Positions 52,719-55,509 of a DNA stretch of 64,000 nt are shown in pieces (position 1 is the first letter of the stretch; each line of letters starts with the position of its first letter). Source of the stretch: Candidatus Limnocylindria bacterium. Its GTDB lineage: Bacteria; Chloroflexota; Limnocylindria; QHBO01. The notes beneath the pieces are model-generated. The model saw only the letters and a list, made by a program, of their open reading frames with translations. It did no database searches and was not told where the DNA came from. A program made the position numbers and the translations under genes. Location of the stretch: contig DATAJO010000013.1 of the NCBI GenBank assembly GCA_036262075.1, positions 1,553 through 65,552 on the forward strand, written 5' to 3'.

Positions 52719-53429
52719 ATGACCATGGACGTTCGGCTCCGCATCCGCCGATTCAACCCCGAGATCGACCGCGAGCCCCACTGGGAGGAGTACGCGGTCA
52801 CGGCCGAGCCCACCGACCGGGTGCTCGACCTCCTCCACCAGGTGAAGTGGTACGAGGACGGCACGCTCACCTTCCGCCGATCCTGCGCCCACGGCGTGTG
52901 CGGTTCGGACGCGATGCTCATCAACGGCCGCAACCGCCTCGCGTGCGAGTACCTCGTCAAGGACGCCGGCACCGATATCACCGTCGAGGCCATCCGCGGC
53001 CTGCCGATCGTCAAGGACCTCCTCGTCGACATGGAGCCGTTCTGGGAGTCGTATCGGTCCGTGAAGCCGTTCCTCGTCAACGACGAGATCCCCGAGGACG
53101 GCCGGGAGCGCCGCCAGTCGCCGGCCGACCGGGAGCGCTACGAGGACACGAGCCGCTGCATCCTGTGCGCGGCCTGCACGACGGCCTGCCCGATCTTCTG
53201 GAACGACCAGGCCTACGTCGGTCCGGCGGCGATCGTGAACGCGCATCGGTTCATATTCGACACGCGCGACACGGCCCACGAGGAGCGGCTCCAGATCATG
53301 GCCGACCCCGACGGCGTGTGGCGCTGCCGCACGACGTTCAACTGCGTCGAGGCCTGCCCACGGGACATCAAGGTCACGAAGGCCATCCTCGAGGTCACGA
53401 ACGAGATCGGCCGGGCCGGCATTCGGTGA
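52719..53429 (+). CDS. sdhB: succinate dehydrogenase iron-sulfur subunit
   Basis: 2Fe-2S ferredoxin motif CAHGVCGSDAM...C, 4Fe-4S motif CILCAACTTAC...P, and 3Fe-4S motif CVEACP. Confidence 0.9.
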   Translation: MTMDVRLRIRRFNPEIDREPHWEEYAVTAEPTDRVLDLLHQVKWYEDGTLTFRRSCAHGVCGSDAMLINGRNRLACEYLVKDAGTDITVEAIRGLPIVKDLLVDMEPFWESYRSVKPFLVNDEIPEDGRERRQSPADRERYEDTSRCILCAACTTACPIFWNDQAYVGPAAIVNAHRFIFDTRDTAHEERLQIMADPDGVWRCRTTFNCVEACPRDIKVTKAILEVTNEIGRAGIR

Positions 53430-53863
53430 GGCTCCTCATCCACACCGATGGCGCGGCGCGCGGCAACCCCGGTCCCGCCGGCGCCGGCGCCGTACTGCGC
53501 GACGTGGCGACCGGTGAGGTCGTCGCCGAGATCGCCGAGCCGCTGGGCTGGGCCACGAACAACGTCGCCGAGTGGACAGCCGTCCGCCTCGCGCTCGAGG
53601 AGGCGCGCCGGCTCGGCGCCACGCACGTCGACCTGCGCATGGACTCCGAGCTCGTCGCGCGCCAGATCAACGGCATCTACCGCGTGAAGCATCCCGACCT
53701 CAAGCCGATCCACGCCGCGGTGATGGACATGCTGCGCAGCTTCGACGGCTACACCGTCGGCCACGTCCCGCGCGAGCTGAACAAGGACGCCGATCGGCTG
53801 AGCAACGTCGCCATCGATGGCCCGCCGGAGCGCCGGCGGCTGGGCGGCGCTCGCCTGGAGTAG
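53426..53863 (+). CDS. rnhA: ribonuclease HI
   Basis: HTDGAARGNPGPAG...NNVAEWTA...DSELV contains the DEDD catalytic residues of RNase H1. The GTG overlaps the sdhB stop. Confidence 0.8.
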   Translation: MRLLIHTDGAARGNPGPAGAGAVLRDVATGEVVAEIAEPLGWATNNVAEWTAVRLALEEARRLGATHVDLRMDSELVARQINGIYRVKHPDLKPIHAAVMDMLRSFDGYTVGHVPRELNKDADRLSNVAIDGPPERRRLGGARLE

Positions 53864-53900
53864 GCGGGGCACCGCAGACCTCGCGCGTCCCCGGGCATGA

Positions 53901-53948
53901 GCGCCCTTCGCACTGAGCGCCCTTCGCACTGAGCGCCCTTCGCATTGA
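53901..53948. repeat. 16-bp tandem repeat x3 (GAGCGCCCTTCGCACT)
   Basis: Three head-to-tail copies (the third has one mismatch) immediately after rnhA and leading into the larger array. Confidence 0.8.
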
Positions 53949-53956
53949 GCGCCTGC

Positions 53957-54540
53957 GATATATCGGTCGTTTGACGCCTGAGGGTGGGCTTTGGGCGACA
54001 CCTGTTCGATTTATCGGCGTGGGGAGCGCCTGAACAGGTCCGATGCCGCCTCTCTGGCCACGCACCAGCCGATATATCGCATGGGCGTAGCCCAGCAGGT
54101 CCCGTCCGGCGACAAACCCGCGATTTATCGGCGGCGGGCGGACAGATCGCTCGTGGGCCGATATATCGGTCGTTTGACGCCCGAGGGTGGTCCCTGGGCT
54201 ACACCTGTTCGATATTTCGGCGTGGGGAGCGCCTGAACACGTCCGATGCCCCCTCTCGGGCCACGCACCAGCCGATATATCGCATGGGCGTAGCCCTGCA
54301 GATCGCGTCCGGCGACAAACCCGCGATTTATCGGCGGCGGGCGGACAGATCGCTCGTGGGCCGATATATCGGTCGTTTGACGCCTGAGGGTGGGCTTTGG
54401 GCGACACCTGTTCGATATGTCGGCGTAGGGAGCGCCTGAACACGTCCGATGCCGCCTCTCGGGCCACGCACCGGCCGATATATCGCCTGGGCGTAGCCCA
54501 GCAGATCCCGTCCGGCGACAAACCCGCGATTTATCGGCGG
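53957..54540. repeat. ~202-bp tandem repeat, about 3 copies, each carrying four AT-rich palindromic boxes (CGATATATCG / CGATTTATCG)
   Basis: Unit starts are at 53957, 54159 and 54363. The units are about 95% identical, and each is composed of two ~100 bp half-units of the form box-41nt-box. The array decays into a (CGG)n tract at 54535-54597. Confidence 0.9.
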
Positions 54541-54623
54541 CGGCGGCGGCCCCGGCGGCGGCGGGCGGGCGGCGGGCGGCGGCGGCGCCGGTGGGGCTAG
54601 GGTCGGCGAAACGGGGAGGGGGA

Positions 54624-54652
54624 TTCCGAACGGGTGTTCGAATCGGTATACT
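54624..54652 (+). promoter_or_regulatory. candidate rnpB promoter (TTCCGA-17bp-TATACT)
   Basis: -10 TATACT at 54647-54652 with a -35-like TTCCGA 17 bp upstream; the predicted transcription start falls at the start of RNase P RNA helix P1. Confidence 0.45.
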
Positions 54653-54663
54653 GTTGGAGACCC

Positions 54664-55003
54664 TGGAGGCGGCCGGACGGCCGCGGGCGCATCGGCCGAA
54701 AGGCCGCGTCCGAGGAAAGTCCGAGCTCCACACAGCAGGCTAGCGGGTAACACCCGTCCACCGTGAGGTGAGGACCAGCGCCACAGTGACGATGCCGGCT
54801 CCCCGGCCGATGAGGTCGGGCCGAGCCGGAGTGAAACGCGGCAAGCTCTAGCCGGAGCAAGACCGAATAGGGGAGCGCAAGGCGGCTTCGGCCGCAGCAG
54901 GCTGCTTGCTCAGCTCCCGGGTAGGTCGCAGAGATGGATGGCCGTCCGTGAGCCCGATGCGTGCATCGGCTCACGACAGAACTCGGCTTACAGGCCGCCT
55001 CTG
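54664..55003 (+). ncRNA. rnpB: RNase P RNA, bacterial type A
   Basis: Conserved GGAAAGUCCGAGCUCCACACAGCAGG (P4 region), AGUGAAACGCGGCAAG, CCGAAUAGGGG, GGGUAGGUCGC...AGAUGGAUGGCCGUCC and ACGACAGAACUCGGCUUACAG. The P1 helix closes GGAGGCGGCC with GGCCGCCUC. Confidence 0.9.
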
Positions 55004-55078
55004 GGGACACCGCCCGCGCCGACGTACCGAGTCGCGCGATCGGGGCGGTGATCGCACATCACGCGGATGAGCTGACCG

Positions 55079-55315
55079 CTAATCCTCGTCCTCGCGCCAC
55101 ACCGAGCGCGCGGTGCACGCGTTGCAGATGAGGCGTGCCTCGTCCATCGAGCCGAGGGGGAGCGGGTGGTCGAGCCCACCGAGCAGGCAGGTCACCTCGA
55201 CGCTGGGCGGTGTGCCCGGGACGATGCTCACGTGGCGCACCGAGCAGCGGCGGATGCGACCGGTCCGTCCTGCCGGTCGGCCGTCCTCGACCGTGTCAAT
55301 CGGGTTGAGCGCCAT
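55079..55315 (-). CDS. small Cys-containing hypothetical protein
   Basis: 78 aa ORF antisense to nothing else; four Cys residues (C..., CLLG, CNAC) suggest a zinc ribbon. Weak call. Confidence 0.25.
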   Translation of the reverse strand: MALNPIDTVEDGRPAGRTGRIRRCSVRHVSIVPGTPPSVEVTCLLGGLDHPLPLGSMDEARLICNACTARSVWREDED

Positions 55316-55509
55316 GCCTGAGCCTGCCTTGGTACGCGATGCCGCTCGTCAGCGGCCGACCCAGACTACGGTCCTGCGCATCGGCGCAACAATGGCGCGT
55401 TCGTACCACGCTCCACGGCTGACGGGCGCATCGCCGTGCGGCGGGCGAGCACGTTAGACTCACGCCGTCGCGGGGCCCCGCGACTGCTCCGCGCTGCACA
55501 GGAGAGGTT

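Follow-up and report, generated by a model that had tools for sequence, protein, structure and literature searches.

A dispersed element of four palindromic boxes, present as a tandem triplet between rnhA and rnpB in a Limnocylindria genome, and its association with a gene for an HTH protein with a putative PD-(D/E)xK fold

Limnocylindria (Ellin6529) are Chloroflexota that are abundant in soil and freshwater, and to our knowledge they have no cultured model and nothing is known of the repeats in their genomes. Here we describe a repeat array in a stretch of 64,000 nucleotides from a Candidatus Limnocylindria bacterium (GenBank assembly GCA_036262075.1, contig DATAJO010000013.1, positions 1,553 to 65,552), hereafter the window, to which all coordinates without a locus number refer; loci on other genomes and contigs are numbered L001 to L054. 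As an earlier, sequence-only reading had placed it, the array lies between the gene of a 145-aa RNase H family protein (rnhA; 53426-53863, plus strand; Pfam RNase_H/RVT_3) and the gene of a bacterial class A RNase P RNA (rnpB; 54665-55006, plus strand; 156.8 bits, E = 1.3e-48). By synteny the RNase H gene is the last of a conserved sdhCDAB-rnhA block, and its product matches, with 100% identity, an NCBI protein from the metagenome-assembled genome (MAG) of a 'Candidatus Limnocylindria bacterium'. Tandem Repeats Finder, run on the window, reports a period of 203 bp with 2.9 copies and 93% matches at 53956-54543, in agreement with the three units of approximately 202 bp that had been noticed. 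The motif CGATWTATCG has 10 exact matches in the window, every one of them within the array and against a chance expectation of 0.09 for 64 kb, and a pattern search allowing one mismatch brings the number of boxes to 12, as had been counted. Unit 1, a four-box element, occupies 53954-54132 (plus strand; boxes 53956-65, 54007-16, 54070-79 and 54121-30; nhmmer 127.5 bits), unit 2 occupies 54157-54335 (plus strand; boxes starting at 54159, 54210 (CGATATTTCG), 54273 and 54324) and unit 3 occupies 54360-54538 (plus strand; boxes starting at 54362, 54413 (CGATATGTCG), 54476 and 54527). The boxes had been described as evenly phased, which they are not, as their start-to-start spacing is 51, 63 and 51 bp inside a unit and 38 bp from one unit to the next. 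The palindrome is longer than the 10 bp first assigned to it: each box is a palindrome of 12-14 bp, (G)CCGAT-NN-ATCGG(C), with the conserved dyad GCCGAT-NN-ATCGGC in alternating orientation (as duplex sequence, GCCGATATATCGGC).

Units 1 and 2 are joined by a linker of 24 nt (54133-54156) which recurs at 54336-54359 and which belongs to the 203-bp period and not to the element as it is found elsewhere, the dispersed copies of which end at box 1 and box 4. On its upstream side the array is preceded by a 16-bp microrepeat (TGAGCGCCCTTCGCAC, 3.5 copies, 53898-53953) that abuts box 1, and on its downstream side it runs into a (CGG)n-like tract of about 18 copies (54535-54591, Tandem Repeats Finder) that is far shorter in the relative L036; both had been seen in the first inspection. 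GC content over the array dips just to 0.63-0.65. Downstream of the array and outside the repeat, comparison with L036, L038, L039, L040 and L041 reveals a promoter-like region of rnpB, TTCCGA-N17-TATACT (54624-54652, plus strand), the sequence of which (…GAACGGGTGTTCGAATCGG-TATACT…) is common to all relatives whether or not they carry the element, and from this comparison we infer a role as rnpB promoter. Promoter and terminator scans of 53300-55400 gave no sites, and a consensus scan of this segment gave no canonical sigma-70 match. The suggestion that each unit is an internal duplication of a box-41nt-box module is borne out as far as the presence of two modules is concerned, yet at this locus the second module fits the first better in inverted than in direct orientation (alignment scores of 24-28 versus 12-14), which makes each unit a long, imperfect hairpin or palindrome. 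A single unit folds with -99 kcal/mol (z -3.7, plus strand). The array is non-coding, as had been proposed, since 203 is not divisible by 3, the open reading frames (ORFs) spanning it have no Pfam match and homologous units at other loci lie between gene ends.

The unit is not confined to this spacer. Species-representative genomes and, likewise, metagenome contigs were scanned with a two-box pattern. The scan of the species representatives recovered the four-box geometry in three MAGs labelled Chloroflexia (L002, L003 and L005), at intergenic sites with no relation to rnhA or rnpB, and the metagenome scan returned 28 loci, of which all 13 with a GC content of 63-72% share the four-box architecture; viral contigs gave no match to the pattern. 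Singly or in clusters, the unit is found between genes at no fewer than 13 unrelated places in MAGs and metagenome contigs of high-GC Chloroflexota. A profile hidden Markov model (HMM) built from 17 units added further copies close to known ones, namely two at L008 that are 3.3 kb apart, adjacent ones at L031 and L034, and two at L030 that are 0.9 kb apart, and found no further unit elsewhere in the 64-kb window. One MAG contains 2 exact-pattern matches. The dispersed element is approximately 186 bp long (178-186 bp) and consists of four GCCGAT-NN-ATCGGC boxes separated by spacers of 40-41, 52-54 and 40-41 nt, so that the box starts are 50-51, 62-64 and 50-51 bp apart; the spacers are free to vary in sequence while their lengths are constant within 1 nt. 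The unit of L005 is without box 4. The genes next to the units are unrelated housekeeping genes, among them those for GlgB, a TetR regulator, an F420H2-dependent reductase, an asparaginase, MscS, AtpC, a MurA-like protein, an MFS protein and PdxS, and the flanking gene pairs are convergent, divergent or co-directional. Among 20 ORFs neighbouring the units there is no transposase, and no neighbour contains a Y1_Tnp domain. The idea of a device specific to the rnhA-rnpB locus, for which a search for the unit elsewhere had been proposed as a check, is disfavoured by this scatter over many unrelated intergenic sites.

Comparison of the copies shows where the sequence is held constant. Across loci the units are 55-67% identical, largely owing to the boxes, with one subfamily reaching 64-81%. 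In the alignment of the 17 units, the CGAT/ATCG columns are invariant, compared with a mean column identity of 63% overall. The same holds for recent copies: among the three units of the window and the unit of L036, 1 of the 32 outer box columns is variable, compared with 3 of 8 columns in the box centres and 27 of 139 other columns. Boxes outside the search pattern are conserved too. Thus, conservation of the boxes in related sequences, which the sequence-only reading had named as a point to check, was found: the boxes are kept while the interiors diverge. Conserved outer half-sites, a free centre and a rigid spacing together suggest the signature of a dimeric DNA-binding protein. A protein-binding array is the most plausible description of the boxes, and the earlier proposal of such an array is upheld by their constraint and by the candidate helix-turn-helix (HTH) protein described below, while its character as a locus-specific device is lost with the dispersal of the unit.

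The candidate protein emerged from locus L030, where two units bracket an ORF of 231 codons that encodes an XRE-type HTH protein (Pfam HTH_31, 1.4e-8). This copy has an in-frame TAG at approximately codon 40 and may be a pseudogene. The protein has 440 homologues, several of them named from Limnocylindria MAGs, and an exhaustive search with its profile returned 473 clusters at E<=1e-10. Three homologues with 64-85% identity (L045, L046 and L047 with its duplicates) have a unit immediately upstream and another immediately downstream (E 2e-17 to 2e-5), and the units abut the start and the stop of the gene in all four loci examined (gene at L030 255-947, L045 1450-2139, L046 6001-6750 and L047 2950-3579). 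The two four-box units that flank each gene are direct repeats which are 83, 74, 70 and 63% identical to each other within a locus, as compared with 54-71% between loci. The protein combines an N-terminal XRE-type HTH domain (HTH_31/HTH_3) with a putative C-terminal PD-(D/E)xK nuclease fold (AlphaFold model, pLDDT 90.5), and its invariant residues are E115, D126, E139, K157, H165, R167, R170 and D177. Pfam, NCBIfam and PADLOC models do not cover the nuclease-fold domain, and PADLOC, PHROGs and NCBIfam recognise the HTH only. The genes downstream are alike at L030, L045 and L046, where a small acidic-tailed membrane protein is followed by an MFS protein, and on account of this shared neighbourhood the HTH-nuclease gene appears to be resident and vertically inherited. 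The small membrane protein is itself conserved (MTSQTPR..EPGYRGAL.TREDRLAR...; L030 1128-1475, L045 2289-2606 and L046 6768-7205, all minus strand); its tail is an acidic Ser/Ala/Glu repeat, its gene converges on the HTH-nuclease gene and stops at the downstream unit, and it is followed by an 85-aa membrane ORF and the MFS gene.

The history of the array can be followed along the gene order sdhCDAB-rnhA-rnpB-(78-aa ORF)-...-mraZ-rsmH-dcw, which is common to many related contigs. The closest relatives, L036 and L037, the RNase H of which is 96% identical, have exactly one unit in the rnhA-rnpB spacer, where the 16-bp microrepeat is present in approximately 1.5 copies and the run of CGG is short, and the same spacer is without a unit in L038, L039, L040 and L041-44. 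In relatives without the element rnpB follows 80-210 bp after rnhA, and in L039 and L041-44 the spacer measures just ~80-110 bp. A unit count of none in distant relatives, one in the closest and three here points to a lineage-specific insertion followed by local tandem amplification, and that the array is a dispersed element amplified in tandem at this locus is, in our judgement, very likely. As the 24-nt linker is part of the 203-bp period and foreign to the element, the additional copies are better explained by unequal recombination or replication slippage than by repeated insertion; the array probably arose in this way, with the flanking 16-bp and CGG microrepeats growing as well. The observation that the array is situated just upstream of the rnpB promoter is correct as to position, while a specific link to this promoter is not supported, as the relatives just mentioned have rnpB shortly behind rnhA and no element. 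With the promoter-like sequence conserved and the element missing in most relatives, the element is dispensable for rnpB, and any role of the array in the expression of rnpB would be hypothetical. Other sequences have also entered this spacer, which in L040 (10412-10580) holds another short motif (GACCCGTGGGGCGG) in triplicate and in L038 contains an inserted GDSL-lipase ORF, and for this reason the rnhA-rnpB spacer appears to be a hot spot at which insertions and repeats accumulate. The 78-aa ORF just 3' of rnpB (55079-55315, minus strand) encodes a Cys-containing protein without Pfam match, and an ORF of 75-80 aa is found there in every syntenic relative.

The best overall explanation of these data, to which we assign a probability of roughly 55%, is that the array consists of three head-to-tail copies of a dispersed palindromic element the boxes of which are operator-like sites of the HTH-nuclease protein that the element brackets. 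The boxes would be sites for a lineage-specific, Limnocylindria-restricted protein in which an XRE-type HTH is joined to a PD-(D/E)xK fold, and binding of the boxes by this protein is slightly more likely than not. XRE/Cro-type HTH dimers bind 14-bp palindromes in which the outer 4-5 bp are conserved and an AT-rich centre tolerates change, and repressors of the phage 434 type bind their operators via the outer halves; by analogy, one protein dimer would occupy each 14-bp palindrome and contact the outer CCGAT/ATCGG halves and not the central NN. The box also resembles an XRE-type repressor operator in being a dyad of ~14 bp with conserved outer half-sites and in lying beside the gene of the regulator itself, in 4/4 loci. 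The nuclease domain might then cut at or near the bound boxes, and the resulting breaks could drive duplication, gene conversion, dispersal and homogenisation of the units, on the model of REPINs with their RAYT transposase, which is present in single copy. That the HTH/PD-(D/E)xK protein mobilises the element is a tentative proposal drawn by analogy, and less likely to be true than not. It is equally speculative that the four-box elements and the bracketed gene form an undescribed class of intragenomic replicator in Limnocylindria and that the triplet beside rnpB is a product of the enzyme's break-and-repair activity; such a replicator would be analogous to REPIN-RAYT but would use a sequence-specific enzyme of restriction-endonuclease fold that works on 14-bp dyads in double-stranded DNA, in place of an HUH transposase that works on hairpins of single-stranded DNA.

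Several observations weigh against this explanation. Protein and boxes are linked through genomic association at four loci, and three of these have their downstream synteny in common and so are probably orthologous and not independent; the 64-kb window contains no homologue of the HTH protein. The putative beta-3 motif of the nuclease fold is E-x-D-R in place of the canonical (D/E)-x-K, so that the domain could be inactive. The copy density is low, with one locus in the 64 kb of the window and none in ~80 kb of L038, L039, L040 and L041. Furthermore, no target-site duplication is found in the flanks of 17 copies, a matching empty and filled site with clean junctions was likewise not seen, and the explanation does not account for the distances of 50 and 64 bp from box to box.

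Part of the same evidence can be accommodated if the XRE-type protein is purely regulatory, with the nuclease fold serving for oligomerisation, and the units are binding platforms that benefit the host by autoregulation, insulation, looping or as supercoil barriers, the triple array modulating read-through from rnhA or transcription of rnpB. The conserved outer box halves and rigid spacing amid diverging spacers, the position of units directly on either side of the regulator's gene in all four loci, the downstream synteny kept in three of them, as for a resident host gene, and the location of the array approximately 100 bp upstream of the rnpB promoter all agree with it. We nevertheless regard it as rather unlikely, because several of the units (L003, L008 and L034) separate the ends of convergent genes and thus have no promoter to act on, because the rnhA-rnpB spacer of most relatives has a conserved rnpB promoter without the element, and because the invariant acidic and basic residues on the strands of the nuclease fold suggest catalysis. 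A further reading takes the units as neutral, decaying relics, either solo remnants of direct-repeat recombination at the HTH-nuclease cassette or an extinct miniature inverted-repeat transposable element (MITE), and the array as a plain variable number tandem repeat (VNTR). The copy number of 0, 1 or 3 at this locus, the strong divergence of the interiors, the loss of box 4 in L005 and the direct repeats flanking the gene, which would be a substrate for solo-repeat formation, are in line with this. Neutral decay would, however, wipe out boxes and spacers alike, whereas boxes that were not used for finding the loci are still conserved, the spacing is kept within 1 nt in very diverged copies and the outer box positions change less than the remainder even in recent copies, which makes this reading improbable.

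Were the unit transcribed, it could form a long hairpin or a three-hairpin RNA acting as small RNA, as stabiliser or terminator in a 3' untranslated region or as RNase III substrate, with the boxes as RNA motifs, and the earlier reading had offered a structured repetitive RNA as an option. In its favour, apart from the folding energy of the single unit on the plus strand, RNAalifold predicts a consensus hairpin of unit length in which 13 of 30 pairs have double changes, covariation for the unit-level hairpin is 0.236 compared with 0.112 for shuffled and 0.05-0.10 for slid controls, and many copies lie just 3' of genes. Such covariation is equally expected of a DNA palindrome, however, and a palindromic nature at the DNA level also shows in the cognate halves A and B of the units, the complementarity of which exceeds that of non-cognate pairs (mean z -1.0, inner helix -1.2). 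The remaining results speak against RNA. Over 16 units the two strands have similar folding energies (mean difference +1.8 kcal/mol, Wilcoxon p = 0.84), local hairpins lack significant stability when segments are folded against dinucleotide shuffles (weak z-scores, with means of -0.3 to -0.9), the central NN of the boxes shows no covariation between boxes and a column-wise helix scan gave just trivial box-box pairings. In some units the two modules are direct and not inverted copies of each other, and the orientation relative to flanking genes is inconsistent, the unit of L021 being antisense to both neighbours. Rfam 15 gave only spurious sub-threshold matches on the array, at the gathering threshold and at E<=10, and only tRNAs and rnpB on 22 related loci. 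The absence of an Rfam match together with the equal folding of both strands points to a palindrome at the DNA level and not to a structured RNA; there is no support for a strand-specific RNA, and we regard an RNA function of the unit as highly improbable.

Among the known systems closest to the element is REPIN-RAYT, in which palindromic repeats are accompanied by a resident single-copy RAYT gene that is flanked by them (10.1101/2022.05.22.493013, 10.1101/2021.07.10.451892, PMC5581495). Shared features are short non-coding palindromes scattered between genes, often in clusters, and a gene for a nucleic-acid enzyme that is flanked by repeat copies and appears to be resident and vertically inherited and not multi-copy; the combination of dispersed palindromes with a resident bracketed gene is found here as well (at least 13 loci, and flanking units at 4/4 HTH-nuclease loci). 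In contrast to REPIN-RAYT, the flanked gene is of the XRE-HTH plus PD-(D/E)xK type and not an HUH/Y1 transposase, the boxes of 12-14 bp are without GTAG tag, four of them are set at rigid spacing, the flanking copies are direct and the copy number appears low. A repetitive extragenic palindrome (REP) is defined as a stem-loop of 20-40 bp that ends in GTAG or CGTC (PMC3733652). Such repeats typically reach tens to hundreds of copies per genome. With the BIME-2/REP clusters of E. coli the element has in common palindromic motifs in alternating orientation with linkers of fixed length, occurrence as single copies or tandem arrays in extragenic positions, often between convergent genes, and the potential to form hairpins or cruciforms; it differs from them in that the box is shorter than a REP stem-loop and lacks the GTAG/CGTC tag, that the linkers are not of sequence-conserved types, that the phylum is another one and that copies are hundreds-fold fewer in the sequence covered (the 64-kb window and ~80 kb of relatives). 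MITE-like repeats (Correia/NEMIS, ERIC, RUP, BOX) are similar in being non-coding and 100-200 bp long, in their terminal inverted symmetry and whole-element hairpin potential, in insertion polymorphism between relatives and in their location near gene ends. Small non-coding size and terminal inverted repeats are indeed properties of the element, box 1 and box 4 being the same palindrome and the halves A and B being complementary. Unlike MITEs, its 17 copies are without target-site duplication, no insertion sequence with matching inverted ends was found, conservation resides in four boxes that are internal as well as terminal, and the associated gene is flanked by whole direct elements and does not belong to a known transposase family.

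The tandem copy number, which is three here, one in L036/L037 and none in L038-L044, resembles that of the mycobacterial interspersed repetitive unit (MIRU) type of VNTR. The initial remark had been that symmetric boxes of this kind are not normal for a simple MIRU-like VNTR; the element does behave as a dispersed repeat with VNTR-like copy numbers of 0, 1 and 3, although its boxes are well conserved. MIRUs are direct repeats of 40-100 bp that occur in operons of mycobacteria, whereas the element is a palindromic mosaic of 186 bp from another phylum that is mostly present in single copies. Plasmid centromeres such as sopC of F, with 12 repeats of 43 bp containing SopB sites, and parC of R1 are arrays of tandem repeats each with a palindromic binding site, as is predicted here, but the present element is chromosomal, occurs at many loci and usually singly, has no partition ATPase nearby and is associated with a protein of nuclease fold. 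The centromere reading and a CRISPR were rejected because of sequence features and context. Integron attC sites were rejected too, as the module ends are GCCGAT... and ...ATCGGC and AAC/GTT cores are lacking. Literature searches on the box sequence, on Limnocylindria repeats and on Chloroflexi MITEs found nothing on the element.

The original observation is hence reduced to a dispersed repeat with VNTR behaviour, and added interest comes from the bracketed HTH-nuclease gene. A repeat family with four precisely spaced dyads amid drifting spacers, together with a single bracketed gene of this type, constitutes a concrete and testable pair of protein and DNA. We know of no resident enzyme with a dependent repeat population other than REP/RAYT, and should binding or cutting of the boxes by the protein prove true, this concept would be extended to a second, unrelated enzyme fold.

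Some pattern matches turned out to belong to other sequences. Those of L004, L006, L007 and L012/L015 are simple unrelated hairpins, and the low-GC metagenome contigs (33-41% GC) L009-L014, L018, L023-L028 and L035 have another repeat, which likewise contains CGATATATCG-type palindromes, spaced 19, 33, 47 and 52 bp, and which the profile search shows to be unrelated to the Limnocylindria unit. The hairpins of L006 (7177-7235) and L007 (697-760) are REP-like with a GCCGATAAATCGGC core and occur in Luteibacter and a Ktedonobacteraceae MAG; the one of Luteibacter adjoins a repeat of the GTGGGAGC... type, and the dyad CGATWWATCG recurs in unrelated repeat families. Beside one unit, in a single case, an ORF for an HNH endonuclease is located (L016 2997-3923, minus strand; HNH_5, 1.5e-14). 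Three unit loci are less than 1 kb from a stable RNA gene, namely the tRNAs at L002 4750-4822 and L017 174-246 and rnpB in the window (54665-55006), which may be due to chance given the few loci. In practical terms, the element breaks short-read assemblies and produces spurious ORF calls over units, such as L036 7372-8136. The Logan contig L001 (1107 bp) stops 64 bp past rnhA within the 16-bp microrepeat, and eight Logan contigs (L047-L054) all stop 224 bp past the HTH-nuclease gene, about 14 bp beyond the end of the downstream unit.

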